The position numbers and the translations under genes were made by a program. 64,000 nucleotides of DNA from an uncultured Iamiaceae bacterium (GTDB lineage Bacteria; Actinomycetota; Acidimicrobiia; Acidimicrobiales; Acidimicrobilacustridaceae). Numbering within the stretch: the first letter of the stretch is position 1; each line of letters begins with the position of its first letter. The notes beneath the pieces were generated by a model. It saw only the letters and a list, made by a program, of their open reading frames with translations, had not been told where the DNA came from and did no database searches. Positions 8,031 through 54,407 of the stretch are shown in pieces. Where the stretch lies: positions 24,132-88,131 of the forward strand of contig CAYUOL010000001.1 of assembly GCA_964446345.1 (NCBI GenBank), written 5' to 3'.

Positions 8031-8046
8031 TCTAACGTTTGTTTGG
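8031..8046. promoter_or_regulatory. Degenerate copy of the TCTAAC-N4-GTTAGA operator
   Basis: TCTAACGTTTGTTTGG has a perfect left arm and 4/6 in the right arm. It lies in the divergent region between the ACAD pseudogene and the thiolase operon. Confidence 0.3.
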
Positions 8047-8303
8047 TTTATACTCTTATGTTCTGCAGCCGCGGTCAAGGAGGCTGCTACATGATTTTGG
8101 TTCATTCGGGACGACCCAATTGGCCGGCCGTAGGAGCTCGGAGAGTCGGCATATCCGGATGCGTCGAGCTTGTTCGATGAAGCAAAGGGTTACTCGAGAC
8201 ATACGAGCAAGACGGCCATACTGTTTCGGTCGGCCTTGTATCAGCTCAGATCGTCGGCGTCGCGATGGCCAAAGACAACATAGTACAATTAAGGAGGCTT
8301 TAG

Positions 8304-9455
8304 ATGTCACTCCGGGAACGGATCGCCATAACCGGCGTCGGCGAAACGGCATATAGCCGCAACTCTGGAAAAAGCGTGCTCGCTCTTCAGCTCGAAGCAT
8401 CACTAAAAGCCATCGACGACGCCGGACTGTCGCCTAAAGACATTGACGGTATCATTCCCTATTCGAACTCAGCGGTCGTCGCGGAGGATTTCGTGACAAA
8501 TTTCGGCATCGACGACCTTCGCTTTTCAGCCACCACGCCTCTCGGAGGCGCAAGTTGCGTGGCCGGAATTCAAGCCGCGCTCTTAGCGATCAGCGCAGGT
8601 CTCTGCAACCATGTGCTGCTGCCGATCGGACGGAACGGCTCGTCTGCAGGTCGCATTGGCACCCGGGTCCAGCAGATGCCGCAGTTCAAGGTCGTCGGCG
8701 AGTTCGAGATGCCGATCGGGGCAATCGCGCCAGCGCAGCTCTACGCCGCGATGGCGCGGCGGCACATGGAACTCTATGGCACGACAAGCCGCCAACTTGG
8801 GGAGATCGCCGTCTCGACCCGCCACAACGCAGTCCTGAATGGCAATGCGATGATGACGAAGCCTATCACCATTGAAGATCACCAGAATTCGCGCATGATC
8901 TCCGATCCGCTTCGGTTGCTGGACTGCAGTCTTGAGAGCGATGGCGGTGCCGCGATCGTCGTCAGCGCTGCCGAGCGCGGCAAGGATATGAGACAGAAGC
9001 CAATCCTCGTTATGGGCGTGGCTGAAGGACATCCCGACTCTCCGAGTTCGATTACCCAGCGTCCCGATATGACACGTTTGGGCATTGCAAAAGCCGCCCC
9101 CAAGGCCTTTGCGATGGCGGGCGTATCGCCTCGGGAAATTCAGGTGGCCGAGATCTACGATTGTTTTACGTATGTCGTTCTCTGCCAGCTGGAAGATATC
9201 GGCTTTTGCAAGAAGGGCGAGGGCGGATCGTTTGTCGAGAGCGGCGCCATAAGGCTTGGCGGAAACCTGCCGATCAACACGCATGGCGGTCTGCTTTCCC
9301 AAGCGCACATGGTCGGGATGAACCATGTGGTCGAACTTGTAAAGCAGCTCAGGGGAAGTGCCGGAAAGGCCCAGGTAAACGGAGCCGAACTGGGTCTCGT
9401 CTCCGGCTACGGCGACATGGGCGACGGGTCGATAGCGATCATGAGGAGAGGTTGA
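8304..9455 (+). CDS. Thiolase-like protein (SCP-x/lipid-transfer type, DUF35 partner)
   Basis: 383 aa with an AAGGAGG SD. Has GGASCVAG and the C-terminal NTHGGLLSQAHMVGMN thiolase signature. Immediately followed by a DUF35 gene. Confidence 0.85.
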   Translation: MSLRERIAITGVGETAYSRNSGKSVLALQLEASLKAIDDAGLSPKDIDGIIPYSNSAVVAEDFVTNFGIDDLRFSATTPLGGASCVAGIQAALLAISAGLCNHVLLPIGRNGSSAGRIGTRVQQMPQFKVVGEFEMPIGAIAPAQLYAAMARRHMELYGTTSRQLGEIAVSTRHNAVLNGNAMMTKPITIEDHQNSRMISDPLRLLDCSLESDGGAAIVVSAAERGKDMRQKPILVMGVAEGHPDSPSSITQRPDMTRLGIAKAAPKAFAMAGVSPREIQVAEIYDCFTYVVLCQLEDIGFCKKGEGGSFVESGAIRLGGNLPINTHGGLLSQAHMVGMNHVVELVKQLRGSAGKAQVNGAELGLVSGYGDMGDGSIAIMRRG

Positions 9456-9459
9456 GAGC

Positions 9460-9915
9460 ATGACCGAAAACATCTATTCGAAACTCGTGCCCGAACCGAC
9501 GCCCGACTCCATGCCCTACTGGAAGGGCCTCAACGAGGGAAGGCTGCTGCTTCAGGAATGCGCGCGTTGCTGGAGAGTCCGGCATTATCCTCGGCCAGTA
9601 TGCGATGCGTGCCATTCGTTCGAAACCCGGTGGATCGAAGCATCGGGGCAAGGTGCAATTCACAGCTGGACGATCACGCATCATCCGTTTCACGACGGTT
9701 ACCGGTCGGATCTTCCCTACACGCTGGTGACCGTCGATCTGGAGGAAGGTGTGCGCATGCTAGCGCGACTGCATGCGCCCGTGGACACGAGACTCGATAT
9801 CGGCATGCCCGTCCGCCTCGTCGTCGAGAGAGCTAAACCAGGCCTTACGCTGCCCGGATTCGTTCTTGCAGCGCCCGCGACCGATATGTCCGCACCCAGC
9901 TCGGGAGAACGATGA
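9460..9915 (+). CDS. Zn-ribbon/OB-fold protein (DUF35 family)
   Basis: CARCWRVRHYPRPVCDACHS is a CxxC...CxxC ribbon, followed by an OB-fold-like region. SD is AGGAGAGG. Confidence 0.85.
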   Translation: MTENIYSKLVPEPTPDSMPYWKGLNEGRLLLQECARCWRVRHYPRPVCDACHSFETRWIEASGQGAIHSWTITHHPFHDGYRSDLPYTLVTVDLEEGVRMLARLHAPVDTRLDIGMPVRLVVERAKPGLTLPGFVLAAPATDMSAPSSGER

Positions 9916-10781
9916 TGGCTGCCGAAATCGACATTGACGGCTTGCGCAAACACATAGGCACCAAGATCGTGGAAGAAGACGAAGCTACGCGAGCGCCCCT
10001 CTTCGGTCTCGTCGCGGCATTCGATCGAGACGATGCGGTACCCATCAAAGGTGGAGCGATTCCGCCCGGATGGCACCTCGCCTATTTCCATTCATTCGCG
10101 CGCAGGGCGACGCTGGGCGAGGACGGCTTGCCCAGTTCGGGGGGTGTGATACCCGAGGTGCCTTTCCCGCGACGCATGTACGCGGGTACGACCCTGGCGT
10201 TTCATCATCCGCTTCTCGTGGGTGACTCTCTCAAACGTGAGACGGAACTGACGGATATTACCTTGCGTTCCGGCAGTACGGGCCCTCTTCTCTTTGCTAC
10301 GCAAACGCGACGTATATTTTCACCACGTGGTCTCGCGATCGTAGAGGAGAGCTACACCGTGTTTCGCGACGCCGTGAAACCGGGAGAGCAAAGCGGCATT
10401 CCAAAGCGAAGCACGCCACCCGCCGGTCTACCGTGGACACGACAGATCGAAACGGATCCGGTGTCGTTATTCCGCTATTCGGCTGTAACCTTCAACCCGC
10501 ATCGTATTCACTACGATCGGACGTACGCGATGACCGTGGAGGGTTACCCAGGCCTGGTGGTTCATGGCCCCTATTCTCAGCAATGTCTCATTGATCTCGC
10601 TCGCGACAAAAATCCGACCAGGACGATTGCTTCATTCACGCAACGCGCGCGCGCACCCTTGTTCGATACCGCGCCATTCGACGTCACGGGGCGCCCGGCC
10701 GACGGCGGGGCGGGAGCCGAGTTGTGGGCAATGACGTCGGGCGGAACCATCGCCATGGAGGTGCAACTTCGGTTCACCTGA
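9912..10781 (+). CDS. Double hotdog (FAS1-like/MaoC-like) enoyl-CoA hydratase
   Basis: ATGA overlap with the DUF35 stop. The C-terminal half carries the hydratase-2-like motif TFNPHRIHYDRTYA...GLVVHGP. Confidence 0.75.
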   Translation: MMAAEIDIDGLRKHIGTKIVEEDEATRAPLFGLVAAFDRDDAVPIKGGAIPPGWHLAYFHSFARRATLGEDGLPSSGGVIPEVPFPRRMYAGTTLAFHHPLLVGDSLKRETELTDITLRSGSTGPLLFATQTRRIFSPRGLAIVEESYTVFRDAVKPGEQSGIPKRSTPPAGLPWTRQIETDPVSLFRYSAVTFNPHRIHYDRTYAMTVEGYPGLVVHGPYSQQCLIDLARDKNPTRTIASFTQRARAPLFDTAPFDVTGRPADGGAGAELWAMTSGGTIAMEVQLRFT

Positions 10782-10834: not shown

Positions 10835-12112
10835 TTAGAGATCGACGTCGCCTGACAGTAATCGCTGGGCAATCATTCGCGTCAGGATTTCATTCGTGCC
10901 GTCGGCAATGTTGACGATCCTCAGGTCTTGCCAGGCGTGAACAAGACCGATTTCGTTCGTCAATCCCATGCCGCCGTGTGTCTGAATTGCACGATCCACG
11001 GCGCGAAATCCGGCTTGTACCGAATAGGCCTTTGCCATCGAAAGCTCCTTCGGCGCTTTATCGCCGCGGTCGAGGAGCATCGCTGCATTCAATCCCATCA
11101 GGTGCGCAGCGTGCAATTCCGTAGCTGCTTCGGCTATCGGAAACGAGACGGCTTGATACTCCGCGATCTTTGAACCGAAGGCCTCACGTTGCTTCGAATA
11201 GTCGATGGCCATTTCCAGCGCCCATCTTCCCTGTCCGACAGCTCGGGCGGCGTTGTACACCCGACCCAGCGAGACTCCATATAGTGCGATCTTGAATCCC
11301 TGGTCGAGCTCGCCGACCAATTGCCAAGGCTGTACCTCTACCTCCTCAAGCACAAGAGCGCCCTCGTGCCCGCCGACGTGACCAAACAAGCGCACGACGC
11401 TCTCAACATGAAATCCTCGTGCATCGGTTGGAACGAGAAATGCGCTGATGCCTCCAGCCTTTCGCACAGCTTTCTCGACGTCGGTGATGGCGAAAACAAT
11501 GCACCATTCCGCAGTGGGAGCGTTGGTTGTCCAGAGCTTGCGGCCAGAGATTTTCCAGCCTGTTCCGGTCTTGTCAGCCCGCGTCTTGATCATGCTGGCG
11601 TCTGAGCCGGCCCCCGGCTCGGAAAGACCAAAGCACATCGATGTCTTCCCGGCCATCATGCCCGCCAAGCATCTCTCGCGGGCTACCTCTGTGACCTGGG
11701 TGAGCAGTCGGCTGGGCCCGAAAGCCCAGTGTGCAATGACCCAGGGAATAATGACGCCCTGCCCCCCGAGCCGGCGATATATCGCCTCCCAGGCCACGTA
11801 GTAGACAAGGTGCCCCAGCCCACCTCCCCCGATTTCCGCCGGTGCGCACATCGCATAGAAGCCGGCTTCGGCCGAAAGCATCCTAACTTGTTGGATCAAC
11901 GTGCGTACTTCGGCGCTGTATCGACCATATTCGTCGTACAGCCGTCGCTGATCTTCGAGAAGCGTGCGATTCCCATCGATCAGCGGCACGACCTGCGAAT
12001 CGACAAAACGCAGAACGCCATCGCGCACTTCAACGACGTACTCGGGAAGTTCAAACGCAACACTGCCCACTGCGATCGCCCCGCTAGTTTCTAAATAGGC
12101 AACGCTCGTCAC
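10835..12112 (-). CDS. Acyl-CoA dehydrogenase
   Basis: 425 aa with a GTG start. Motifs CFGLSEPGAGSD, WTTNA and a C-terminal IADGTNEI. Confidence 0.88.
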   Translation of the reverse strand: MTSVAYLETSGAIAVGSVAFELPEYVVEVRDGVLRFVDSQVVPLIDGNRTLLEDQRRLYDEYGRYSAEVRTLIQQVRMLSAEAGFYAMCAPAEIGGGGLGHLVYYVAWEAIYRRLGGQGVIIPWVIAHWAFGPSRLLTQVTEVARERCLAGMMAGKTSMCFGLSEPGAGSDASMIKTRADKTGTGWKISGRKLWTTNAPTAEWCIVFAITDVEKAVRKAGGISAFLVPTDARGFHVESVVRLFGHVGGHEGALVLEEVEVQPWQLVGELDQGFKIALYGVSLGRVYNAARAVGQGRWALEMAIDYSKQREAFGSKIAEYQAVSFPIAEAATELHAAHLMGLNAAMLLDRGDKAPKELSMAKAYSVQAGFRAVDRAIQTHGGMGLTNEIGLVHAWQDLRIVNIADGTNEILTRMIAQRLLSGDVDL

Positions 12113-12162
12113 GGAACCTTGCGTTCTGATCTCCCGACAGAGCCGCTAGATCACGCGCACCC

Positions 12163-12945
12163 TTACCTGCCCTGCCAGACCGGCTTGCGCTTTTCGGCAA
12201 ACGCTCTGGGACCTTCGATTGCGTCTTGGCTGGCATAGACAACTTCGTGAAGGCGTTTACCCTCTACCAGTCCCTCGCGGCATCCGAGGTCCATCGTCGA
12301 GCGAACACTGGCTTTGGCAGCAATGACAGACAATGGCGCACCGTTGGCAATGCGCATAGCCAAATCCTTGGCACGAGAGCGCACAGCGTGTGGTGTATCT
12401 TCAAGATAATTAGTGAAACCGTAATCGTGCAGCCGTTCAATTGGCATGAGATCGCCCGTCAGAACGATCTCCATAAGGATTGCCTGAGGTAGCATATAGA
12501 GGGCCGGAGCGGCCCAGGGCGAGCCACGACCGATCTTTACCTCCGTGATGCCGGCCTTAGTCCCTTTGAGACCGACGCGCAGATCGCACATCAGCGACAG
12601 CATCATTCCGCCCGCCATCAGCGAGCCGGTCATCGCGGCAATGATTGGCTTGGAGCACGTGCGCATGCGCTCGTGGAAAGGATCGCGCATTTTGGACAGG
12701 ATATCGATCTGTTCGTTGCGAGCGATCTCGGCCGCCTCCTTGAGGTCAAGCCCCGCGCTGAAGACGCCACAGTCGGCAGAGGTTAGAATTACCGCCCGGA
12801 TCTTGCTGTCCGCTTCGATCCGGTCCCAGGCATCGGCCAGTCCATTAGCCGCCGCCACAGATAGCGCGTTCTTGCGGTCAGGACGATTGATAAGAACGGT
12901 AGCAATACCTTCTTCGACGCTGACTTCGATTGGACTATCGATCAT
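12163..12945 (-). CDS. Enoyl-CoA hydratase/isomerase (crotonase family)
   Basis: MIDSPIEVSVEEGIATVLINRPDRKNAL and SADCGVFSAGLDLKE. The internal ATG at 12945 gives a typical length of about 260 aa. Confidence 0.85.
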   Translation of the reverse strand: MIDSPIEVSVEEGIATVLINRPDRKNALSVAAANGLADAWDRIEADSKIRAVILTSADCGVFSAGLDLKEAAEIARNEQIDILSKMRDPFHERMRTCSKPIIAAMTGSLMAGGMMLSLMCDLRVGLKGTKAGITEVKIGRGSPWAAPALYMLPQAILMEIVLTGDLMPIERLHDYGFTNYLEDTPHAVRSRAKDLAMRIANGAPLSVIAAKASVRSTMDLGCREGLVEGKRLHEVVYASQDAIEGPRAFAEKRKPVWQGR

Positions 12946-12978
12946 GGAGTTCACTGGCTTTCGCGCTGAAGGTTGGCA

Positions 12979-13029
12979 GTCGGCGGCGGATGCATTATCC
13001 ACCGCCCCCGGGCGGTTGCACCCGCCGAC
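12979..13029 (-). promoter_or_regulatory. Nested GC-rich stem-loops downstream of SBP gene
   Basis: GTCGGCGG (12979-12986) pairs with CCGCCGAC (13022-13029). The inner pair is ACCGCCC-cc-GGGCGGT (13001-13016). It sits between the SBP stop (13062) and the crotonase start (12945). Confidence 0.35.
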
Positions 13030-13061
13030 ACGTAGGATTTGAGCCAACGGGATCGCCGGAA

Positions 13062-14312
13062 CTATTCGGCCTTAAATCCGGATGAACTCGTTTTCACGAT
13101 CTGCCAGATGAGGTCCTGATAGTCCGCCAGCCAGCCGGTCTGCGGCACCCACTTCTGACCGTCCCACATTTCGATTCTTGTCTTGCCTCCGCCACCATGA
13201 TCTTGAGCAGTGACGGTCACAGGGGCAAGAAGGCCATTGGCATCGAAATCCTTGAGGCTCTCATAGCCAACTTTCATCGATGCGGCGGTCACTGGCCAAC
13301 CAGCTTGTTTCACCGCATTTCGTGCGGCTTGAAAGGCAACCGAGTAGTTGGCGAGACCCAAGTTGTAATACACATCTTTCAGGTTTTTTTCGGGGCCACT
13401 TCCCTTACCCTTTGCGTAAAGCTCAGCCATTATTTCTTTGATGATAGGGACATCCTGGCCGCCGACGACGTTTGTGCCACGCTTGATGCCCTTGGCAACA
13501 TCGGGACCAATATTGGCAATATCCACCTCGTTAAGCCAGTTGACCGAAATGTACTTTTCGATCTGATAGCCGTTGCGCTTCATTTCCTTAGCCGCGACGA
13601 CATGTCCTCCGGCCAGGAGCCAGCTGATCATGAAATCAGGCCGGTCGCGCCTTACCTGCGTCCAAGCGCTCGTCTGATCGCTGCCGGGCAACGGCACCGG
13701 GTAGAGCTTCAACTCGAAGCCTTCGCGTTCAGCGAGTGTCTTCAAGACACCGATCGGCTCCTGACCGAAGGGATAGTCGAGATAGATAAATCCGATCTTG
13801 GCCCCCTTCAAATCGCCGCTGCGCTGTTGTTTGATGTAGGCGATATCGTTGGCGGCTTGCCCCCAATAAGTCGCACCCACGGGGAAGATTTGCGTGAACA
13901 CCGAGCCGTCAACGGCATCACCGCGTCCGACCGATGACTGCATCAAAATGTTCTTATCCTTCATGATCCGCGGTAGGACAGCTATCGACACCGGTGTCGA
14001 CAGCATGTCGAATACGAACACGCCGTCACGTTTAAGCCTTTCGTAGCATTCAATGCCGCGTTGGGGCTCGTTGCCGTGGTCCTGAACCACGATCTCTACC
14101 TTGTGCCCTTCGATACCACCCTTAATATTCGTCAGGGCGGCAAGGTCTTGCGCAGCTTGCGCCACCTGTGGCGAGACGAACGTGTAGGATTTGCTTAGAT
14201 CGAAGCACAAGCCGAACTTCAGGGTTCCTTCCTGAGCCAAAGCGTCTGTCCAGCCTGCGGCACTGAGAGCGGCAGCGACCGCCAAGCCCTTTGTCACTTT
14301 CCCGATTAACAT
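13062..14312 (-). CDS. ABC transporter substrate-binding protein (PBP1, Liv family), paralog A
   Basis: ATG 14312 follows GGGAGG. Signal peptide MLIGKVTKGLAVAAALSAAGWTDALAQ. Closely alignable to the next gene. Confidence 0.9.
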   Translation of the reverse strand: MLIGKVTKGLAVAAALSAAGWTDALAQEGTLKFGLCFDLSKSYTFVSPQVAQAAQDLAALTNIKGGIEGHKVEIVVQDHGNEPQRGIECYERLKRDGVFVFDMLSTPVSIAVLPRIMKDKNILMQSSVGRGDAVDGSVFTQIFPVGATYWGQAANDIAYIKQQRSGDLKGAKIGFIYLDYPFGQEPIGVLKTLAEREGFELKLYPVPLPGSDQTSAWTQVRRDRPDFMISWLLAGGHVVAAKEMKRNGYQIEKYISVNWLNEVDIANIGPDVAKGIKRGTNVVGGQDVPIIKEIMAELYAKGKGSGPEKNLKDVYYNLGLANYSVAFQAARNAVKQAGWPVTAASMKVGYESLKDFDANGLLAPVTVTAQDHGGGGKTRIEMWDGQKWVPQTGWLADYQDLIWQIVKTSSSGFKAE

Positions 14313-14414
14313 TCTACCTCCCAATCTGTTGGTCGAATTTCAGTACGCCTTCTGCTGTCCTCGGCCTTTAAGAGCGCTGCTGAACGGAGTTGGCGTTCGT
14401 CATGTCTTCAAGTG

Positions 14415-15662: not shown

Positions 15663-15703
15663 GAGTCTCCTCCGTTCACAACTGACACATTGGGGCGTTC
15701 TGA

Positions 15704-16522: not shown

Positions 16523-16530
16523 GCCGATTT

Positions 16531-17604: not shown

Positions 17605-17607
17605 GCG

Positions 17608-21219: not shown

Positions 21220-21256
21220 ACCAGCTCGCTTCGCATTCGCGGCCCGTTGAACCTGG

Positions 21257-22162: not shown

Positions 22163-22178
22163 TCTAACATGTGTTAGA
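22163..22178. promoter_or_regulatory. Palindromic operator TCTAAC-N4-GTTAGA
   Basis: TCTAACATGTGTTAGA has 7-bp perfect arms. It lies 43 bp upstream of the SDR start codon that heads the long minus-strand operon. Confidence 0.6.
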
Positions 22179-41268: not shown

Positions 41269-41284
41269 CCTAACAAACGTTAGA
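41269..41284. promoter_or_regulatory. Operator copy CCTAAC-N4-GTTAGA
   Basis: CCTAACAAACGTTAGA has one mismatch. It lies in the 92-bp divergent region between the ACAD start (41223) and the fadH start (41316). Confidence 0.55.
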
Positions 41285-46521: not shown

Positions 46522-46599
46522 ACCATTTCATCCGATACGGTATCTCGGCACGGTCCGGCCGTATCAATCCACAAGTTGAGGGCGCCGCCGTCGCGCGCG

Positions 46600-47361: not shown

Positions 47362-47421
47362 GGTTATCACCCCTCCCTTCCGCGGATACGCCATAGGTGT
47401 TCTAACCTTAGGCGACCAAAT

Positions 47422-47437
47422 TCTAACGTATGTTAGA
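47422..47437. promoter_or_regulatory. Palindromic operator TCTAAC-N4-GTTAGA
   Basis: TCTAACGTATGTTAGA lies between the BadH-like SDR (start 47361) and the double-TetR gene (start 47458 or 47482). An extra TCTAAC half-site is at 47401-47406. Confidence 0.6.
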
Positions 47438-47457: not shown

Positions 47458-48870
47458 ATGTCTAGAGGCAAATTACACAATATGAATTCGCCCTCACCGC
47501 AGCTTGGAACTACTGGAAAAAATCATGGCAAGTCGGAGCAGACGCGCGCCCTCATCCTGAGCGCCGCCGCGAAGCTATTTCGAGATGAAGGATACGATGC
47601 CACGACGCTCCGCAAGATCGCGAAGGCTGCGCGTATGGAGGCGGGTAGCCTATATTATCACTTTGCGTCGAAGGAGGCGATCTTCGACGAAATCCTTCGA
47701 TTGGGCGTACGGCACGTTTTCGACGCCGTGCAGAAGGTCCGAGAGGATTGCCGGCTCTCCGGCAGGGATTTCCGACAGACATTCGCCTTGATGATCGACG
47801 CGCACTTGACGTATTTCCTGAAAGAAAGTGATTTCACTTCGGCAAATATCCGAAATTACTCGAGGCTTCCTCAGGACATGCGCGTGACCCATCGACCACT
47901 GCGCCAAGCCTACACCTCCGTGTGGGACAATTTCTTTGCAGAGGCTCAAACGGCCGGGGACATTCGGAGCGACATCAAAGTCGTACCGCTGCGACAGTTC
48001 GTGCTGGGAGCAATGAATTGGACAGTCGAATGGTATGATGCGACGCGCTATCCCGTAAGCATGCTGTCTGAGCGCTTGTGTAAACTTCTTTTGGACGGAA
48101 TGTCCACCGCACGCGGCATGCCATTGAAACAGCCAGGTCCAATCGAACTGGAAACCCTGGACCTGATTGATTCCGACGACAGCAAATCATCCCGCACCCG
48201 CGTCCAAGTGCTCTCCGCTGCAGCGCGGATTTTTCGCGACAGAGGGTACAAGGCTGCAACAATGCGAGATATCGCGCAAGAAGCCGGCATGGAAGCAGGC
48301 AGCATCTATTATCATTTTAATTCAAAGGATGAGATACTCGACGAAGTGCTCGATATTGGATTGCGAGCGGTCCTGCGCGGAATGTCGTCGACCATTTCGA
48401 AGACACATCAGTTTCCCGATCACCGCAGCCGGATCGCCGCAGCGATCCGTACCCATATGGAGTACCTCTTTCGTTTGAGCGAATTTACGTCTGCGAATAT
48501 CCGCATTTTCGGGCAGCTACCCAAGAAGGTGCGAGCACGTCATCAGCCAATACGACACAAGTACGCGAACCTTTGGGATGACTGCTTACGCAAAGCGCAG
48601 GAAGCGGGTGAGCTGCGCTCCGATATCAAGGTTGTGCCTTTGCGGCAGGCCATGCTGGGAGCGCTCAACTGGACTGTAGAGTGGTTCAATCCAGAAAAGG
48701 GCCAACGCGATGGATACTATTCGCTGTCTGAATTGATTGTGATGTTGCAGAGCCTACTGTTGGATGGCCTTCAGTACGATGCCGGTCCTTCGCTTCACCA
48801 TCGCGACTTGCCCTCTACGAGCAAACGAACGAGGCGGCGCGCCTTGCGCGCTGGATCTCACGCCGGCTAA
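47458..48870 (+). CDS. Tandem (double) TetR-family regulator: two complete TetR units in one chain
   Basis: Unit 1 is SEQTRALILSAAAKLFRDEGYDATTLRKIAKAARMEAGSLYYHFASKEAIFDE...FTSANIRNY...SDIKVVPLRQFVLGAMNWTVEW. Unit 2 starts near nt 48181: SSRTRVQVLSAAARIFRDRGYKAATMRDIAQEAGMEAGSIYYHFNSKDEILDE...FTSANIRIF...SDIKVVPLRQAMLGALNWTVEW. Alternative start ATG 47482. Confidence 0.88.
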   Translation: MSRGKLHNMNSPSPQLGTTGKNHGKSEQTRALILSAAAKLFRDEGYDATTLRKIAKAARMEAGSLYYHFASKEAIFDEILRLGVRHVFDAVQKVREDCRLSGRDFRQTFALMIDAHLTYFLKESDFTSANIRNYSRLPQDMRVTHRPLRQAYTSVWDNFFAEAQTAGDIRSDIKVVPLRQFVLGAMNWTVEWYDATRYPVSMLSERLCKLLLDGMSTARGMPLKQPGPIELETLDLIDSDDSKSSRTRVQVLSAAARIFRDRGYKAATMRDIAQEAGMEAGSIYYHFNSKDEILDEVLDIGLRAVLRGMSSTISKTHQFPDHRSRIAAAIRTHMEYLFRLSEFTSANIRIFGQLPKKVRARHQPIRHKYANLWDDCLRKAQEAGELRSDIKVVPLRQAMLGALNWTVEWFNPEKGQRDGYYSLSELIVMLQSLLLDGLQYDAGPSLHHRDLPSTSKRTRRRALRAGSHAG

Positions 48871-50063
48871 GCGTCTTTCTTGTTTACAATCAGCGACGCG
48901 TTCTCCTCCAGGAGATCGATAAATTCCACGCCATCGGCCCGGATTCGTGCACTGGTGGCAAAAGCTTCGATGGCACGTGTTTGGGCCATGATACGATCGG
49001 CGCCGGGCTCGGCGACGAGCAAGAGGCGCACGGTATCCCGATCGTTCTCGCATGTCACAACCGCCTGGGCGGCGCGCACGCCTGGGGTCGCGATAACCAC
49101 TTCTTCGATGGCGCGGGGGTAGACGAAAATCTCACGGACTTTTACGGCCGCGCCGACTCGTCCCTGCAAGGCCGAAAGACGCGTAACGCGACCATCTCCG
49201 TCACTCTCAAGAGCGAAGCCGCTATCTCCGGTGCCGAAGCGGATCATCGGCCAGTTGGCGTCGCGTGCGGTCACCACGATCTCACCGGTTTCGCCGGCGG
49301 CCAAGGGTTCCCCACTGATGGGATCGCAGATCTGCACCACGTGATTGGGATGCGCAACATACCCTTCGCCGTCATCCTCATAAGCCACAAGACCCAGATC
49401 GGCCGTCGCATAGGCGGCCCAGGTTGTAACGCCATAGTCCGCTTCGATACGACGCCGTTTCGCCATCCAGTCGCCCATCTCGCCGCCGAGGAATGCTGAT
49501 CTGACCTTCCAAGCGTTCCGCCCATACGCCTCGATTACCGTATCCGCCAATGTAAGGAAGAATGCCGTGCTGGCGCAGACCGCGGTCACGCCGGTTTCAA
49601 CGATGATCTGCGCCTGCAGCTCACGGTTTCCCGTACCACCGGGAATGACCGTCGCGCCGACTGCACGCGCTGCTTCGTCGAACAAAAGACCTGCCGGGAC
49701 CAGATGATAGGACCATGTGTTCAGGAGGAGATCGCCCACCGTGATCCCCGCAGCCTTGAACAGCTCCTTGAGGCCGTGCCCGCCACCTCCCGCCAATGAG
49801 GGCTCGAAGATCGGTCCGGGCGACACATAGATCCGCGACAGGCTTTCGAGATCGGCTGCGAGAAAGCCTCCAAAGGGCGGATTTTCCCTTTGGAGTGCCA
49901 GGAGCTGTTCTTTCTTCAGAACCGGCAGGCGAGAGAGATCCCTCAATGATCTGATGCTTGCCGGGTCGAAACCCGCCGCATCGAAGCGTGCCTTTAGGCC
50001 GGGCGCCTTACGTGCCGCCTGGCCATAGGCTGCAGCGATCTTCCGGTAAATCGCGTCGGGCAT
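48867..50063 (-). CDS. PaaK-like adenylate-forming-family protein with degenerate P-loop
   Basis: 398 aa. The N-terminus LRDLSRLPVLKKEQLLALQ is PaaK-like. Where PaaK has SSGTTG, this protein has RIYVSPGPIFEP. Confidence 0.7.
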   Translation of the reverse strand: MPDAIYRKIAAAYGQAARKAPGLKARFDAAGFDPASIRSLRDLSRLPVLKKEQLLALQRENPPFGGFLAADLESLSRIYVSPGPIFEPSLAGGGGHGLKELFKAAGITVGDLLLNTWSYHLVPAGLLFDEAARAVGATVIPGGTGNRELQAQIIVETGVTAVCASTAFFLTLADTVIEAYGRNAWKVRSAFLGGEMGDWMAKRRRIEADYGVTTWAAYATADLGLVAYEDDGEGYVAHPNHVVQICDPISGEPLAAGETGEIVVTARDANWPMIRFGTGDSGFALESDGDGRVTRLSALQGRVGAAVKVREIFVYPRAIEEVVIATPGVRAAQAVVTCENDRDTVRLLLVAEPGADRIMAQTRAIEAFATSARIRADGVEFIDLLEENASLIVNKKDA

Positions 50064-50090
50064 ATGCTCGCTACCTCTCTCCCGCGCAAA

Positions 50091-50900
50091 CTAAATAGGG
50101 CAGTCCTTGCGAAAATTCGGAGCGCGCTTCTCCCGATGTGACAGCACGCCTTCCTTGACGTCAGGGCCCATGAAACCCAGCATCTCGAACGCAGTGGAAG
50201 CGTCGAAGATTGGCCCGGCCTGGCGCAACCAATTATTCAGTGAATATTTCGTCCAGCGGATCGCGCTTTGCGCGCCGTTTGCCAACTCAACTGCAGTGTC
50301 GAGAGCGACTTGCTGCAGTTGATCATCGTCGACACACATGGATACCAAGCCAATGCGCTCGGCCTCTTCGCCGGAGATTGCCTTGCACGTCAGAAGATAA
50401 TACTTTGCCTTGGCCATGCCGCAGAGCAGCGGCCAAATGATCGCCGCTACGTCACCTGCGGCAACCCCCAGGCGGGGGTGCCCGTCAACAATCTTGGCTC
50501 GCTTGCCTGCGATCGACACGTCAGCCAGAATTCCGACAACGAGCCCCGCACCCGCGGCTGGGCCATTGATCGCCGAGATGATAGGCTTGTTGCAATTGAT
50601 GATGTTGTAAACGAGATCCTTGGCTTCCTTCCAGGTTCTCATCATCTCGTCGAAGTTGCCCGCTATTCTTTCGATCAGGCTGAAATCTCCCCCCGCCGAA
50701 AACGCCTTGCCAGCCCCCGTCACGATAACCGCGTTGATGTTGGGGTCGCGGTCGACATCAATCCACATGTCGGTCATTTGCGTGTGCGTTTCCGCATCCA
50801 CGGAGTTGAAGGTTTCGGGACGATCGAACGTGATCCGAAGAACACGGTCCGCCGGATAGTCGAATTTCAGTTTGTTGTATTTGGCATAGCGGTCAGACAT
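50091..50900 (-). CDS. Enoyl-CoA hydratase/isomerase (crotonase family)
   Basis: ATG 50900 follows GAAGGAGGAAG. Motif [15 protein letters not shown]. Confidence 0.88.
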
Positions 50901-50939
50901 GGTGTGTTCTTCCTCCTTCAATGTACGGGCAATTATCTA

Positions 50940-52091
50940 TCAGCCAGGCAAGCCGAGAACGGCTTTCGACAAGATATTGCGCTGGATCTCATTCGTCCCG
51001 CCGTAGATCGTGGTCGGTCGCGCCTTGTAGAAGTTCGCCAGCACGTCAACACCGACATTGCCGAGCTGTAAGGGACCGATCAGGCCGCCGTCAGGTCCGG
51101 CGGATTCGATCATGAGTTCGGTAATCTCTTGGAACGTCTCAGTGACCCAGATCTTCAGCATCGACACGTCGGGACCGAGCATTTCGCCGCGCTTGAGTTG
51201 GTCGGCGAAGCGGCTATAGAGCGCCGCGTGATCCTCAACATCCAGAGCGACTTTCGCAAAGCGATCGCGGAACACCGGATCGTTGAACATGCAGCGCCCT
51301 TGCGCAATCGTCCGTAACTGAACAAGTGCGTTTTGCGCCAGGTTGGGCGCACCGATGAAGATTCGCTCGAAGCCGAGCAGGGCCTTGGCCATCGTCCAAC
51401 CCTTGTTCAGTTCGCCAACCAGGTTTTCGCGGGGCGCGCGAGCATTGTCGAAGAATACCTCGCAGAACTCGTCTTCACCCGCGAGCGTCGTGATCGTGCG
51501 AACTTCGATGCCCGGCTGGTTCATTTCGGCGAGCAAGAAGCTGATGCCCTCCTGTTTTTTTCGCGCATGAGAATCGGTGCGCACCAGCATAAAGATGTGC
51601 GTGGCGTCATGAGCCATCGTGGTCCAGATCTTCTGCCCATTGATCACGAAATAATCGCCGTCGATCACGGCACTCGTGCGCAGACTGGCGAGATCGGACC
51701 CCGAGCCCGGCTCGGAGTAGCCCTGACACCAGATGTGCTCACAAGTAAGGATACGCGGCAGCCAGTAGTGTTTCTGCGCCTGGGTGCCAAACTTGATGAT
51801 AAGGGGGCCGACCATCTGCACACCCATGTCGCGGCCCCGCGTCACGCCCCAGCGCTGCTGCTCTTCATAAAAGATGAGGAGCTTCGAAGCTTCCAGACCC
51901 ATGCCGCCATATTCGACCGGCCAAGCAGGCGCGACCATGCCCTTGGCGTAGAGCTTCTCGTGCCATTGGCGGATCTCGGCGAACTTCGCCCGATGCGGCA
52001 GATGGCGTAGCTCTTCGGGATACTCGGTCTCGAAGAAGGTGCGAACCTGGCGGCGGAACGCTTCGTCACTCAGTGCATTCCAGTCGGTCAT
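50940..52091 (-). CDS. Acyl-CoA dehydrogenase, canonical-motif member of an adjacent pair
   Basis: 383 aa. Motifs CQGYSEPGSGSDLAS and IYGGTNEIQRNIL. ATGA overlap with the upstream ACAD. Confidence 0.88.
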   Translation of the reverse strand: MTDWNALSDEAFRRQVRTFFETEYPEELRHLPHRAKFAEIRQWHEKLYAKGMVAPAWPVEYGGMGLEASKLLIFYEEQQRWGVTRGRDMGVQMVGPLIIKFGTQAQKHYWLPRILTCEHIWCQGYSEPGSGSDLASLRTSAVIDGDYFVINGQKIWTTMAHDATHIFMLVRTDSHARKKQEGISFLLAEMNQPGIEVRTITTLAGEDEFCEVFFDNARAPRENLVGELNKGWTMAKALLGFERIFIGAPNLAQNALVQLRTIAQGRCMFNDPVFRDRFAKVALDVEDHAALYSRFADQLKRGEMLGPDVSMLKIWVTETFQEITELMIESAGPDGGLIGPLQLGNVGVDVLANFYKARPTTIYGGTNEIQRNILSKAVLGLPG

Positions 52092-53200
52092 CGACCTGCC
52101 TCATTTGCCTCAAGAGCGTCCATCCAACGAGCCCGGTGGTAGGCGGCATCCCCGAGCCAGGCCGAAAGCACAAGCGCACGGTTCAGAAACAAGCCGATGT
52201 CGAACTCGTCCGTATAGCCGACTGCACCGTGGAGTTGAATCGATTCCCGGGTGATCCTCTTGGCCGTGCTGCAGGCGCGAGCTTTGGCGCGGCTCGCCTC
52301 ACGTATGCGCGCGCCCTGATCGGCGCTCACATCCATCCGTGCCAGCGCCTCGCTCACCCCCGCCTCGGCCACCTGCTGAGCGACATACAGGTCTACGGCG
52401 CGGTGCTGGATGACCTGAAACGACCCGATTGGCTTGCCGAACTGCTCGCGCGTCTTCACATAATCGAGGGTCAGTTCGAGTGCTTTAGCGCTGACGCCGA
52501 CCAGCTCGGCGGCGGCGAGCGCCGTGGCGTCGGCGACGACGGTGGACAACGCTTCCGATACCACCGAGCCTTCGGCCAGCAATTTACCTGGGGCGTCGAC
52601 AAAGCCGATGTCGCAGAGCTGGCTTCCGTCGGACTGTCGCCGCAGCTCCGAGTAGATCCCCTTGCCATCAGCGTCGAGGGCAACGAGAACGGGCTTCGAA
52701 TCATTTTGCGCAACCACGAGCAATTGATCCGCGCCGACGGCCCCGGCAATCCAGGCCTTTGAGCCGTTCAGCACCTTACCGTCGAAACGGCATGCCATTT
52801 GGTCAGAGTAACCTCGAAGACCACGTTCCTGCCAAGCGAGGGCGCAGGCGATTTTGCCACTGATAGCCGTAGCGAGCATCGCATCGCCAGGACATACCCG
52901 TTGAATCATTCCGATCGCAAGTGCGATGGCTGACACCACCGGTTCGGGCGTGAGCGCGCGACCAACTTCTTCCACGATCACACCGGCCGCTGTAAGTCCC
53001 ATGCCAAGTCCGCCGACCGCTTCTGGGGCGGCGACACCGAGCACGCCAGCATGGGCCAGTTCGTTCATCACCTGTCGGTCCCAGCCCTTGTCGCGAGCGT
53101 TACGGGCGCGTGCGATGCCGCCCGCGCGCTCAAAGAGTGTGCGCACGCTTCCGCGCAGCATCCGCAAATCGTCCTGTGAATGCGCCCTCACATTGCTCAT
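52088..53200 (-). CDS. Acyl-CoA dehydrogenase-fold protein, divergent-motif member of the pair
   Basis: 370 aa and ACAD-like overall (LHGAVGYTDEFDIGLF). The nucleotide/substrate loop is degenerate: ALAWQERGLRGYSD in place of xSEPGxGSD. ATGA overlaps on both sides. Confidence 0.8.
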   Translation of the reverse strand: MSNVRAHSQDDLRMLRGSVRTLFERAGGIARARNARDKGWDRQVMNELAHAGVLGVAAPEAVGGLGMGLTAAGVIVEEVGRALTPEPVVSAIALAIGMIQRVCPGDAMLATAISGKIACALAWQERGLRGYSDQMACRFDGKVLNGSKAWIAGAVGADQLLVVAQNDSKPVLVALDADGKGIYSELRRQSDGSQLCDIGFVDAPGKLLAEGSVVSEALSTVVADATALAAAELVGVSAKALELTLDYVKTREQFGKPIGSFQVIQHRAVDLYVAQQVAEAGVSEALARMDVSADQGARIREASRAKARACSTAKRITRESIQLHGAVGYTDEFDIGLFLNRALVLSAWLGDAAYHRARWMDALEANEAGR

Positions 53201-53646
53201 GACGGCGGCGCTGCCTTTCGCTTAACCATCGCGGCGGTATCGACGGTCAGCACGGGCTCTCCTGCCATGTTGCGCGCTTCGACACGGTAGCTGACGACAC
53301 CCCGATCGGGCTTGGTTTGGGAGGGCCTCACTGCCTGCATCTTCAATGTAACATCAAGCGGCTCATTCGCCCGCACAGGCGCGTTCCAAGATAGTCTCTC
53401 GAAACCCAAACCACCGATGTTTGCGACCCCCGTCATGAAGTCCCGCATAATCGGCCTGAATACGAGGAGGAGTGTCTGGAACCCCGATGCGATCAGACCG
53501 CCATGGATTTGCTTGGCATAGTATTCATCCGTATGCAGCCGCTGCGGATCCCATTCCCTGGCGAACGAAATTATCTCGTCCTTGCTTAAGGGAGGGGTGC
53601 GGAACGCAAAAATTTGTCCGACCTTGAAATCCTCCAAGTACTTCAC
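53197..53646 (-). CDS. MaoC-like (R)-specific enoyl-CoA hydratase (single hotdog)
   Basis: 149 aa with a GTG start in a GTGA overlap. Motif EWDPQRLHTDEYYA...GGLIASG. Confidence 0.8.
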   Translation of the reverse strand: MKYLEDFKVGQIFAFRTPPLSKDEIISFAREWDPQRLHTDEYYAKQIHGGLIASGFQTLLLVFRPIMRDFMTGVANIGGLGFERLSWNAPVRANEPLDVTLKMQAVRPSQTKPDRGVVSYRVEARNMAGEPVLTVDTAAMVKRKAAPPS

Positions 53647-54368
53647 GGCCGATGCCCTTCCTCCGTCGGCGCAAAACCATCGTCAAAGCCGCTCTGCCCC
53701 GCGATCCGGCAACGGTTGAATTCCTCCAGCTTGGGATAGGTTGCTTTGAACGCCGCCAGGAATTCGTCGATTGGCGCATCCACGTACAAGCCCCGGTCAT
53801 GAACATATTCCATGTGCCTCTGATTCTTTTCGTCGAACTCGTGAAACAGAGCGTCAGACGTCCCGTCGAAGAGAAGAGGCTTTACTCCGAAGCGCTTGCA
53901 TAGCTCCATGTTGAAGGCCGGCGTAACCTTGTAGGGCCTCCCGTCGAGCCACAGCTGCACGTATCCGTGGTAAATGAAGAGATCCGTTTGCATCAGCTCG
54001 GTTAGCTTTGGCGTATTCAAATGGTTACGAACGTCGGCGAAGCCCAATGCAGCGGGAATGCCAACAGCACGTAGGCAGGCGGTCAGCAAGATCGCCTTGG
54101 GCACACAAAAAGCAGACTCCGCCCCTGCCACCACGCTAGCGCGATAAGCATCGGGGCTCAGTTCAAACGTGTAGGGATCATATCGGATGCCATCGCGCAC
54201 CGCTTCGAACAGTCGGATTGCCTTTTCGGTATCGGAAGCGCTGGAGTTCAGGTTGCGCAAAGCAGACTCTACGAAAGCCCTCACCTCGGCGCTATCGCTA
54301 TCGACAAAGTTTGTTGGGGAAGTTAAGCACGCCGGATCTGCCGGCGGTCGATGATCCGCGCTAGACAT
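53643..54368 (-). CDS. Transglutaminase-like (papain-fold Cys/His) domain protein
   Basis: 241 aa. AESAFCVPKAILLTACLRAVGIPAALGF and a downstream HGYVQLWLDG fit the transglutaminase-core Cys...His pattern. It is the first gene of the operon. Confidence 0.6.
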   Translation of the reverse strand: MSSADHRPPADPACLTSPTNFVDSDSAEVRAFVESALRNLNSSASDTEKAIRLFEAVRDGIRYDPYTFELSPDAYRASVVAGAESAFCVPKAILLTACLRAVGIPAALGFADVRNHLNTPKLTELMQTDLFIYHGYVQLWLDGRPYKVTPAFNMELCKRFGVKPLLFDGTSDALFHEFDEKNQRHMEYVHDRGLYVDAPIDEFLAAFKATYPKLEEFNRCRIAGQSGFDDGFAPTEEGHRP

Positions 54369-54391
54369 TATCCACCCCTTGAAGCAGCTTT

Positions 54392-54407
54392 TCTAACATA
54401 CGTTAGA
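54392..54407. promoter_or_regulatory. Palindromic operator TCTAAC-N4-GTTAGA
   Basis: TCTAACATACGTTAGA lies 24 bp upstream of the transglutaminase-like start codon. It is the exact reverse complement of the 47422 core. Confidence 0.6.

Follow-up and report, generated by a model that had tools for sequence, protein, structure and literature searches.

Gene content of the locus

The window (the whole 64-kb stretch of DNA analysed here) is Bradyrhizobium DNA and contains a double-TetR regulator gene at 47458..48870 on the plus strand, encoding a protein of 470 aa with two TetR_N and two TetR_C_24 domains (Pfam). Translation possibly begins at the second ATG instead, at 47482. Judged by its sequence, the product is a single chain of two complete TetR units. 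The two halves are 47% identical to each other; by our own count from the alignment, identity between the halves is about 41% in the ligand domains and about 60% in the DNA-binding parts. The two halves have the same recognition helix, MEAGS[I/L]YYHF-SK, which does not vary within the family. Among the homologues listed, all 120 have a length of 408-502 aa and carry two TetR_N and two TetR_C_24 domains. Some homologues carry the JGI label 'cholesterol catabolism regulator', which is an automatic assignment and not evidence. In the AF2 model (pLDDT 83, pTM 0.81) the chain is predicted to fold as an intramolecular pseudo-dimer. The top Foldseek match is DNA-bound Mce3R (9b7y_A; 421 columns, covering the whole chain; TM 0.76; 18% identity), while single halves structurally match the acyl-CoA-sensing TetRs PfmR, KstR2, AibR, FadR, BkaR and MbdR. 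Single-domain TetRs of about 210 aa from the same clade share 45-52% identity with each half; their helix is KAGSIYYHF-SK. One such relative, in B. genosp. SA-3, sits beside AtuA.

The surrounding genes are arranged in several operons. Operon C (44584..47394, minus strand) consists of a BadH-like SDR and an acetate/acetoacetate-CoA-ligase-like gene (Pfam, NCBIfam). The fadH-like gene (41316..43349, plus strand) encodes an OYE/2,4-dienoyl-CoA-reductase-type flavoenzyme. Operon A (30337..41223, minus strand) encodes an AliB-like ACAD, an ECH, an ACAD, a PaaK-like ligase, a carboxyltransferase, a biotin carboxylase/BCCP and an HMG-CoA-lyase-like protein; the acyl-CoA ligase at 30337-31893, beyond a gap of 186 nt, may belong to it. 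Operon G (28260..30194, plus strand) contains an SDR and two 4HBT thioesterases, and operon F (22483..28069, minus strand) a carboxyltransferase, an AtuE-like ECH, a biotin carboxylase/BCCP and an ACAD. Ten genes with short gaps form operon H (10835..22120, minus strand): SDR, ABC ATPases, permeases, ligase, two solute-binding proteins, ECH and ACAD. Its ligase gene sits within the transporter operon. Operon E (48867..54368, minus strand) encodes a transglutaminase-like protein, MaoC, an ACAD pair, an ECH and an unknown 398-aa protein. Operon I (8304..10781, plus strand; SCP-x-type thiolase-like, DUF35/ChsH2-OB, MaoC-type hydratase) is a tentative member of the regulon discussed below, on the strength of a single site at 8031.

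Palindromic sites in promoter regions

The exact pattern TCTAACNNNNGTTAGA was found in a scan of the window at 22163-22178, 47422-47437 and 54392-54407, the three positions given in a preliminary description of this DNA. Perfect TCTAAC-N4-GTTAGA was absent from 100 dinucleotide-preserving shuffles of the window. Allowing up to two mismatches added three copies, at 28133 (one mismatch), 41269 (one, as described) and 8031 (two). The six copies compare with 0.54 expected, and none of the shuffles reached six; at three mismatches the level is that of background (14 copies versus 9 expected). Intergenic DNA makes up 9.2% of the window and contains all six copies; their placement is non-random and intergenic. 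The sequences flanking the six copies are not related to one another. The preliminary description had suggested comparing genic with intergenic matches to a matrix built from the six sites; with a 24-nt symmetric matrix the six sites of the window score 29.5-36.8, followed by an intergenic copy at 63916 (17.4), with all other matches genic and at or below 4.9.

The element had been described as a 16-bp palindrome with an N4 centre. The arms TCTAAC and GTTAGA hold, but the fuller consensus is a 20-nt palindrome, AWTCTAACA-NN-TGTTAGAWT, and the 'N4' reads A-N-N-T. The gap between AAC and GTT is 4 nt in all 104 sites from other genomes (foreign sites) and in all six window sites. Positions C2, A4, A5, G11, T12, T13 and G15 of the motif are invariant. 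TCAAAC/GTTTGA variants of the half-sites were also seen; the PsrA motif is of the similar AAAC-N-GTTT type.

Coordinates of the sites are given without strand. O1 (47422..47437; TCTAACGTATGTTAGA; perfect) lies between operon C and the double-TetR gene, which adjoins it in divergent orientation from the SDR gene, at 28 nt from the SDR start and 21 nt from the double-TetR start, or 45 nt if the second ATG is used. It is the predicted autoregulatory site of the double-TetR gene. A promoter-like element, TAGACA-16-tgGATAAT, runs from 47464 to 47437 on the minus strand; since it ends at 47437, transcription of the SDR gene is predicted to start inside O1. O2 (54392..54407; TCTAACATACGTTAGA; perfect) lies upstream of operon E, 24 nt from the transglutaminase-like gene, and its core is the exact reverse complement of the O1 core; both the distance and the symmetry agree with the preliminary description. 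O2 is kept in the Bradyrhizobium loci L001-L003, and the exact 20-mer adjoins transglutaminase-like orthologues (61-73% identity) in seven metagenome contigs.

O3 (41269..41284; CCTAACAAACGTTAGA; one mismatch) separates operon A, whose ACAD start is 46 nt away, from the fadH-like gene, whose start is 32 nt away. It is enclosed by the promoter-like element TTTCCA-17-TAGAAT (41258-41286), and a CCTAACAAAYGTTAGA site lies between the ACAD_40042 and FadH orthologues in at least 24 loci and in many metagenome contigs. O4 (28133..28148; TCTAACATCCGTTTGA; one mismatch) lies between operons F and G, 64 nt from the carboxyltransferase start and 112 nt from the SDR start. It falls within TTGACA-16-TAGAAA on the minus strand (28157-28130; read by eye, the strict promoter scan giving no match there), and foreign sites are framed likewise by a conserved TTGACC-16-TAGAAA. 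Sites are also found upstream of orthologues of CT_26471 (loci L014 and L071) and of SDR_28260. O5 (22163..22178; TCTAACATGTGTTAGA; perfect) is 43 nt upstream of operon H, as described before; the first SDR gene of this operon has its start codon at 22120, with a strong Shine-Dalgarno sequence. The site recurs at orthologous SDR_21257-ABC operons in loci L016 and L040 and in two more loci.

O6 (8031..8046; TCTAACGTTTGTTTGG; two mismatches) lies between an ACAD remnant and operon I. Copies 28133 and 8031 had both been called weaker; 28133 is a good site, with one mismatch, and 8031 is the one that departs further. All copies were also said to be intergenic and next to a start codon, which holds for the former in all six cases, but between O6 and the thiolase start lie 258 nt, the nearest start codon being that of a 29-codon ORF at 8088. 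No cross-taxon support was found for O6, the six contigs that carry it being sequence-identical and near-clonal, and its flanking genes are absent from the neighbourhood of the regulator in all 77 foreign loci checked. O6 is listed as a tentative operator of the double TetR. The copy at 63916..63931 (CCTAACGGGTTTTTGA) precedes by 43 nt a 79-aa PP-binding gene just past the window end; it has T at position 11, where all 104 foreign sites have G, and is probably non-functional.

Promoter-like hexamers overlap O1, O2 and O3 in a sequence scan (promoters predicted); under strict rules no match was obtained at 22163, 28133 or 8031.

Conservation in other genomes

Relatives of the double TetR were used to fetch 77 alphaproteobacterial loci outside Bradyrhizobium. 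In 77 of the 77 the palindrome precedes the regulator gene by 20-100 nt, and TCTAAC-N4-GTTAGA is the commonest perfect inverted repeat in the unique foreign upstream regions (27 of 58). In the fetched loci site scores are bimodal, and all 171 sites fall outside matched coding DNA. A second matrix was built independently of the motif, by taking from each foreign upstream region its most palindromic 20-mer, whatever the sequence. The top six matches to it in the window are the six sites, at 21.7-27.5 versus at most 11.4 for the remainder; O6 ranks sixth (21.7), and the 63916 copy scores 11.4.

Orthologues of the regulon genes (60-86% aa identity) with the palindrome upstream occur in other orders and in metagenomes, namely ACAD_40042/fadH, CT_26471-ECH-BC-ACAD, SDR_28260-thioesterases, SDR_21257-ABC-ligase and the transglutaminase-like gene. 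Operon orthologues and sites adjoin the regulator in Rhodobacterales, Sneathiella, Hyphomicrobiales and Rhodospirillales. For operon C, orthologues of the BadH-like SDR adjoin the regulator in 70 of 77 loci and those of the ligase-like gene in 53 of 77. Orthologues of operon G occur in 44-45 of 77 loci and those of the fadH-like gene in 28 of 77, each of the latter with a site. The gene order of operon A is kept in five loci (L005, L006, L016, L027, L071), the four-gene set of operon F lies downstream of the regulator in four (L005, L012, L014, L020), and 13 metagenome contigs have an orthologue of ECH_12163 (operon H) beside the exact motif.

Because the loci were picked via the regulator, co-occurrence of regulator and motif is partly built into the sampling. 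A reverse test, which started from metagenome contigs with the exact 20-mer and a GC content of at least 0.55, offsets this in part: a regulon orthologue lies within 500 nt of the 20-mer in 44 of 58 contigs. The pairing of motif, regulator and operons is conserved across alphaproteobacteria. This comparative evidence supports the proposal of the preliminary description that a TetR-type operator set ties together the carboxylase modules, the ABC/ligase operon, fadH and the ACAD-pair operon.

Proposed regulation and related systems

The palindrome is in all likelihood the operator of the 47458-48870 double TetR, which would repress a regulon of about 38 genes. By folding on itself the protein is predicted to take the shape of an ordinary TetR homodimer. 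The recognition helix has stayed the same in both units, which accounts for the palindromic form of the operator, and one molecule is proposed to read its two symmetric half-sites, the centres of which are about one helical turn apart in the 20-nt inverted repeat. The operators are predicted to fall within core promoter elements or to abut them, with GTTAGAWW, the right half-site, doubling as a -10 hexamer of the TAGAAT/TAGAAA type, so that bound double TetR should block RNA polymerase. Besides the regulator gene itself, eight or nine transcription units across 46 kb would be repressed; they encode two acyl-CoA carboxylases, an HMG-CoA-lyase-like enzyme, many ACAD, ECH and SDR enzymes, a FadH-like reductase, CoA ligases, thioesterases and an ABC importer. 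From this gene content the flanking operons would form one pathway, apparently one that degrades methyl-branched and/or alicyclic (terpenoid-like) carboxylic acids. The double TetR would come off the DNA once its ligand domains have bound an acyl-CoA of the pathway or perhaps the free acid. Very probably, then, a two-in-one TetR docks at six promoter-region palindromes and switches about 38 genes for the breakdown of branched or ring-containing fatty acids together.

Which protein occupies the sites was weighed against other readings. The clade of single-domain TetRs shares the recognition helix, has members in other Bradyrhizobium genomes (P0157, P0180, P0192), and shows CTAAC-N4-GTTAG palindromes at its own loci (L212 at 4723 and 3029, L213 at 3954 and 4692, L215 at 3939 and 6684); a paralogue elsewhere in the genome could therefore share or compete for the sites. 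That such a paralogue is the chief occupant of all or some of them, with the double TetR one of several readers, is nevertheless quite unlikely, as the 64-kb window holds no such gene and the double TetR is the regulator kept beside these operons in all 77 loci. The preliminary description had named two candidate binders, the double TetR and the ordinary TetR at 3042-3674, and of these the double TetR is retained. The ordinary TetR shares the window with the sites and has a TetR_C_24 domain, but it is 26% identical to the double TetR, its recognition helix differs (VTKPTIYYYIESK), the nearest site is about 4.4 kb from its gene, no inverted repeat surrounds its gene start and no orthologue occurs near the regulon in the 77 loci, making it an extremely improbable candidate.

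Two further readings concern what the sites do. The motif is AT-rich, and AT-rich metagenome contigs carry chance copies, some within tandem repeats of about 312 nt; that the window copies are chance matches or pieces of dispersed repeats or mobile elements devoid of a regulatory role is, however, effectively refuted by the shuffles, the foreign loci, the reverse test and the independent matrix, together with the unrelated flanks, the intergenic location of all copies and the recurrence of sites at orthologous promoters across orders despite diverged surroundings. Activation, or a dual role of the bound double TetR at some promoters, is very unlikely. The geometry of sites and promoters is a prediction and three sites have no promoter call, but at the promoters that can be recognised the operator occupies the -35/-10 spacer or covers the transcription start, as is usual in repression, and nearly all characterised TetR-family proteins are repressors (PMC3511530). 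We infer both binding of the operator by the double TetR and repression over activation.

A more far-reaching, and doubtful, reading is that the protein is a natural 'single-chain TetR' that integrates two pathway intermediates and controls a terpenoid/alicyclic-acid regulon across alphaproteobacteria. A homodimeric acyl-CoA-sensing TetR would have been duplicated and fused, leaving the ligand domains free to diverge, while the reading heads would have been kept identical so that a perfect palindrome is still read. If true, one molecule could sense two intermediates, e.g. one per carboxylase module, in a regulon conserved from marine roseobacters to Bradyrhizobium. In the engineered single-chain TetR (scTetR), two joined TetR units bind the palindromic tet operator as one molecule; that protein is artificial and linker-joined, whereas in the present one the fusion happened in nature and the ligand domains have diverged.

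Among double-TetR repressors, only Mce3R (Rv1963c) of Mycobacterium tuberculosis has a solved structure (PDB 9b7y); its halves come from distinct TetR subgroups and its operator is non-palindromic and asymmetric (PMC11667970). Both proteins have two TetR units per polypeptide; in both, by prediction for the present one, the chain forms an intramolecular pseudo-dimer that controls genes of lipid and acyl-CoA metabolism. In the window protein, by contrast, the halves are 47% identical, with one helix and a perfect palindrome, and both are 46-52% identical to one single-domain clade, unlike the distinct-subgroup origin of Mce3R. Double TetRs have so far been counted in actinomycetes and the present one is alphaproteobacterial. 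Sequence orthology was not found (phmmer E = 4e-14, many single TetRs being as good; 18% identity), and the fusion probably arose independently.

KstR (Rv3574) of mycobacteria recognises TnnAACnnGTTnnA, TAGAAC-N2-GTTCTA, a 14-bp palindrome with a 2-nt centre (PMC1995591). It resembles the present system, as predicted, in being an autoregulated TetR with a large lipid-catabolic regulon, and in having a short palindrome with an AAC...GTT core that recurs in many intergenic regions and there overlaps -10 elements (by prediction in the window). It differs as a homodimer of the cholesterol pathway with the half-site TAGAAC instead of TCTAAC and a gap of 2 nt instead of 4. Membership in the KstR regulon was rejected, TnnAACnnGTTnnA not being matched and the 4-nt gap being uniform in foreign and window sites.

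The cyclohexanecarboxylate (Ali/Bad) pathway, marked by the equivalogs AliB, BadH, BadK, BadI and AliA, was not recognised in the window: ACAD_40042 (538 bits versus the AliB cut-off of 575) and SDR_46600 (352 bits versus the BadH cut-off of 431) are by their scores close relatives of AliB and BadH, below the equivalog thresholds, and no BadI-type hydrolase was identified in the window. In Pseudomonas the acyclic terpene utilisation (Atu) cluster is repressed by the TetR protein AtuR, whose operator overlaps the -35/-10 elements of divergent promoters and whose inducers are branched or naphthenic acids (bioRxiv 10.1101/2025.09.24.678253). That cluster has a geranyl-CoA-carboxylase-type enzyme, ACAD, ECH and SDR; its marker genes are an AtuC/AtuF-type carboxylase, the ACAD AtuD, the hydratase AtuE and AtuA. 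Two carboxylase pairs, ACADs and an AtuE-like ECH (212 bits versus a cut-off of 426) are present in the window, and no AtuA domain was found among the window proteins scanned (Pfam/NCBIfam). AtuR differs in its unrelated operator, TACAAACCAAGCGCTTGCTTGGTA, its single domain and the two known promoters of its regulon.

The acyl-CoA-sensing TetRs, i.e. FadR/YsiA (Bacillus), PfmR and FadR (Thermus), AibR (Myxococcus) and PsrA and FadP (proteobacteria; FadP and LiuQ being confined to betaproteobacteria; PMC5343134), control beta-oxidation-type regulons via palindromes. Each half of the window protein matches their folds and has their YsiA-like/TetR_C_24 ligand domain; these regulators, however, are homodimers of single-domain chains of about 200 aa.

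Copies of the palindrome and the genes they head

The palindrome TCTAACNNNNGTTAGA is present in exact form at three places in the window (22163-22178, 47422-47437 and 54392-54407), and no perfect copy occurred in 100 dinucleotide-preserving shuffles. With up to two mismatches allowed, copies were also found at 28133 and 41269 (one mismatch each) and at 8031 (two mismatches). This gives six sites with 0.54 expected, and none of the shuffles contained six. Core matches with three mismatches (14 found, 9 expected) were dropped as background. The gene map was built from ORFs and Pfam matches; intergenic DNA, which makes up 9.2% of the window, holds all six copies, as claimed in the preliminary description. 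Its statements that the 54392 and 47422 cores are reverse complements of each other, and that the 22163 copy lies 43 nt 5' of an SDR start codon, were likewise confirmed, and a strong Shine-Dalgarno sequence is found at the latter position. A symmetric 24-nt matrix scored the six sites at 29.5-36.8, a weak copy at 63916 at 17.4 and the rest of the window at no more than 4.9, all of it genic. The flanks of the six copies are mutually unrelated save for short A/T runs; the copies are therefore not pieces of a dispersed repeat. An extra lone half-site, TCTAAC, is located at 47400-47405, immediately upstream of the SDR start codon; it stands to the left of the 47422 operator at a distance of 22 nt, or about two turns of the helix.

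The units headed by the sites comprise about 38 genes in total. A BadH-like SDR gene with an acetate/acetoacetate-CoA-ligase-like gene is divergent from the double-TetR gene. A fadH-like flavoenzyme gene is divergent from the AliB-like ACAD operon, which encodes ACAD, ECH, ACAD, a PaaK-like ligase, carboxyltransferase, biotin carboxylase and an HMG-CoA-lyase-like protein. A second carboxyltransferase/ECH/biotin carboxylase/ACAD operon is divergent from an SDR gene and two thioesterase genes. The remaining units are a ten-gene SDR/ABC transporter/ligase/binding-protein/ECH/ACAD operon and a transglutaminase-like/MaoC/ACAD-pair/ECH operon.

An IS481-family transposase ORF (43174-44277, minus strand; rve, HTH_32, LZ_Tnp_IS481) is located between the fadH-like and ACS-like genes; as called, this long ORF runs about 175 nt into the 3' end of fadH. 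Elsewhere in alphaproteobacteria these two genes are contiguous or have only an acyl-CoA ligase gene between them. The G+C content of the window is 58.6%, below the roughly 63-65% of typical Bradyrhizobium chromosomes. This low value, the transposase, the gene remnants and a regulator with 98% identity in three Bradyrhizobium species suggest that the window is a horizontally acquired catabolic island.

Conservation of the motif beside the double-TetR gene

The double TetR (47458-48870, plus strand) comprises 470 aa and contains a TetR_N and a TetR C-terminal domain twice each, the ligand-domain families being TetR_C_24 and YsiA-like. Its halves are 47% identical to each other; counted by hand from the alignment of the halves, identity is about 60% in the DNA-binding parts and about 41% in the ligand domains. 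The recognition helix, MEAGS[I/L]YYHF-SK, is present in both halves, and its residues are invariant family-wide in both. The palindromic form of the operator would be explained by these two identical reading heads in one chain. An AlphaFold2 model, for which the alignment of homologues described below was used, is confident (pLDDT 83, pTM 0.81). Its best whole-chain match in the PDB is DNA-bound Mce3R (421 columns, TM 0.76, 18% identity), followed by matches of one half each to the acyl-CoA-sensing TetRs PfmR, KstR2, AibR, FadR, BkaR and MbdR. Close kinship to Mce3R was rejected on sequence, which is no nearer than that of many single TetRs; only the architecture is shared.

Several hundred homologues of the double TetR were found; among the matches listed, they have 408-502 aa and the same doubled domains, and those named are alphaproteobacterial. 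From an alignment of 22 homologues, 80 genomic loci were fetched with 10-kb flanks. Three are from Bradyrhizobium (98% identity), by which the window is assigned to this genus, and the other 77, here called foreign, are from Rhodobacterales, Sneathiella, Hyphomicrobiales (Hoeflea, Aliihoeflea, Aquibium, Mesorhizobium, Enterovirga) and Rhodospirillales-type genomes (Nisaea, Ferrovibrio). A scan with the window matrix located a site 20-100 nt 5' of the regulator gene in all 77 foreign loci. The score histogram of the scanned loci is bimodal, and none of the 171 sites scoring at least 20 falls in tblastn-matched coding DNA, which covers 57% of the loci. The foreign sites (104 unique) have invariant C2, A4, A5, G11, T12, T13 and G15, with A and T at positions 7 and 10 and flanks A-W and W-T.

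Orthologues of the window proteins (60-86% identity) cluster around the regulator in these genomes, with sites at their heads. Among the 77 loci, an orthologue of the short-chain dehydrogenase SDR_46600 is present in 70, of the ACS-like gene in 53, of SDR_28260 and its thioesterase in 44-45, of FadH in 28 and of ACAD_40042 in 24; the CT-ECH-BC-ACAD operon is found in 8-9 and the SDR-ABC-ligase operon in 3-4. The genes spread over 46 kb in the window thus correspond to the set that distant relatives carry, with the motif at each, beside the regulator. This placement at orthologous operon heads supports the proposal of the preliminary description that the scattered units belong to one regulon.

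The same motif was obtained independently of its initial definition. All perfect 6-nt inverted repeats with a spacer of 0-8 nt were collected from 58 unique foreign regions, each covering the 220 nt that precede the regulator gene, and TCTAAC-N4-GTTAGA was by far the commonest (27/58). A matrix made by taking from every region its most palindromic 20-mer, regardless of sequence, has the consensus AnTCTAACAnnTGTTAGAnT; on the window it places the same six sites at ranks 1-6 (21.7-27.5), the next scores being 11.4 (63916) and 10.5. In the reverse test, a search of metagenome contigs for the exact 20-mer AWTCTAACANNTGTTAGAWT yielded 120 loci. A regulon-gene orthologue (SDR_46600/TetR2x, i.e. the double TetR; ACAD_40042/FadH; ECH_12163/SDR_28260; or the transglutaminase-like gene) lies within 500 nt of the motif in 44 of the 58 contigs with a G+C content of at least 0.55, and near the 20-mer in 0 of the 40 contigs below 0.45. 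The low-G+C matches were rejected as operators, being chance copies or tandem repeats.

Several of the metagenome loci have features of their own. The low-G+C contigs L083, L116, L141 and L155 (0.29-0.33) contain the 20-mer 3-10 times each, and in L083, L116 and L155 the copies are mostly spaced by about 312 nt, inside an unrelated tandem repeat. In three loci (L150 at 4088, L178 at 12369 and L168 at 2576) the exact 20-mer lies directly 5' of family-III CoA-transferase (CaiB/BaiF-like) genes, nested within the longer palindrome CTTCGCTAATAATCTAACA..TGTTAGATTATTAGCGAAG; these genes are possibly further regulon members in other taxa. Five loci of 0.53-0.61 G+C (L102, L107, L117, L146, L196) carry it in the conserved context CTCTAAAACAATCTAACAnnTGTTAGAATGGGGGATATAAGGTG. 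Flanking ORFs were read in L107 and L196, where the 20-mer lies upstream of dprA-like genes at a distance of 100-350 nt, and these high-G+C copies look unrelated to the acyl-CoA regulon.

The 8031 copy is a tentative operator. It lies 258 nt from the thiolase start, between an ACAD N-terminal remnant (7414-7821, minus strand), of which only residues ~42-149 are left, and a 29-codon ORF (8088-8177, plus strand) that has a strong Shine-Dalgarno sequence; this stretch may represent a divergent regulon promoter in decay. Six contigs encode an identical thiolase; as the intergenic region is identical too, they are uninformative on the conservation of this site. The weak copy CCTAACGGGTTTTTGA at 63916-63931 precedes by 43 nt a gene for a 79-aa PP-binding (acyl-carrier-like) protein; this gene is found just past the window end and is followed by MarR and RND/MFS efflux genes. 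The copy was set aside as a seventh operator because the invariant G11 is broken, and is probably non-functional.

Proposed regulator, predicted promoters and putative pathway

Two regulators had been put forward in the preliminary description, the double TetR and an ordinary TetR (TetR_C_24) encoded at 3042-3674 (plus strand), which adjoins genes for a solute-binding protein, a nitronate-monooxygenase-like protein and a cytochrome P450. The former stands, with the motif upstream of its gene in 77/77 loci. The latter was discarded: it is 26% identical to the double TetR, its recognition helix differs, no site or inverted repeat was found near its gene, and it has no synteny with the regulon in the 77 loci. 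A single-domain TetR paralogue elsewhere in the source genome could also share these sites. A search with the C-terminal half retrieved many single-domain TetRs of about 210 aa, among them proteins of other Bradyrhizobium species and Variovorax, which share the helix and have 45-52% identity to either half. In loci drawn from Bradyrhizobium genosp. SA-3, Variovorax defluvii and a MAG, a palindrome of this type is found both at the regulator gene and at acyl-CoA genes next to it: TCTAACAAACGTTAGA and CCTAACGCTTGTTAGA in L212 (Bradyrhizobium genosp. SA-3), beside ECH, AtuA and SDR genes; ACTAACATTCGTTTGG and CCTAACAAATGTTTGC in L213; and TCTAACAAATGTTAGG and TCTAACTATTGTTAGA in L215. The sites lie at 3029-3044 and 4723-4738 of L212, at 3954 and 4692 of L213 and at 3939 and 6684 of L215. 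The motif is thus a 20-nt palindrome common to a wider clade of TetRs, and the double protein is a fused representative of this clade. That the double TetR regulates the sites in the window is a well-supported prediction from these comparisons. The Bradyrhizobium single-domain TetR gene adjoins AtuA and AtuA_ferredoxin genes.

Wherever a promoter is readable, the operator is predicted to form part of it. The 41269 site is enclosed by TTTCCA-17-TAGAAT at 41258-41286, and with TAGACA-16-tgGATAAT at 47464-47437 the predicted SDR transcription start falls inside the 47422 site. By manual reading, minus-strand TTGACA-16-TAGAAA encloses the 28133 site, and foreign sites of this class have a conserved TTGACC-16-TAGAAA frame; a strict promoter scan at 22163, 28133 and 8031 found nothing. 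Within such frames the right half-site, GTTAGAWW, would double as a -10-like hexamer, so that bound protein should exclude RNA polymerase. Judging from site position, the ligand-domain families and the behaviour of related TetRs, the double TetR would repress by blocking RNA polymerase, regulate its own gene and be released upon binding a pathway acyl-CoA.

The gene set includes two biotin carboxylase/carboxyltransferase pairs, an AtuE-like hydratase, an acetoacetate/acetate-CoA-ligase-like enzyme and a FadH-like reductase; no AtuA gene was found in the window. The HMG-CoA-lyase-like enzyme passes its subfamily cut-off, and the AliB-like ACAD and BadH-like SDR both lie slightly under their equivalog cut-offs. 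This content resembles Atu/Liu logic (beta-methyl-branched acids) combined with Ali/Bad-type steps (alicyclic acids), and we read the putative pathway as one that degrades terpenoid-like carboxylic acids of branched or cyclic structure.

Significance and comparison with known systems

The proposed assignment links regulator, operator and regulon for a large, hitherto uncharacterised catabolic gene set with two acyl-CoA carboxylases, many ACAD/ECH/SDR enzymes and an ABC importer. Many alphaproteobacteria have retained the set; they include abundant marine Rhodobacterales and Sneathiella genomes that were assembled from samples exposed to oil. With a conserved operator the full regulon can be read in any genome, which should aid in finding the substrate, and the repressor/operator pair is a candidate biosensor part for branched or naphthenic-type acids. 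No description of this double-TetR regulator or its regulon was found in the literature on the motif, on fused or two-TetR proteins or on Rhodobacterales TetR regulons. To our knowledge, Mce3R is the only double TetR that has been studied.

The operators of KstR and AtuR were compared with the motif and are different. AtuR controls a similar kind of genes, but its operator is unrelated. KstR is an autoregulated TetR with an AAC/GTT palindrome that is repeated over a lipid-catabolic regulon and overlaps -10 elements (PMC1995591). The present system would work in a similar way, but the spacing and half-site of the two motifs differ. Double TetRs are infrequent and have been counted in actinomycetes; the halves of Mce3R belong to different subgroups, and its operator is non-palindromic (PMC11667970). 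This sets the present family apart as a different kind of double TetR, which shares architecture with Mce3R, but neither operator symmetry nor ancestry. Like halves with a palindrome, as opposed to unlike halves with an asymmetric operator, constitute a second, contrasting type, and the comparison could show what fusing a homodimeric repressor buys the cell, possibly concentration-independent dimerisation or two ligand pockets free to diverge.
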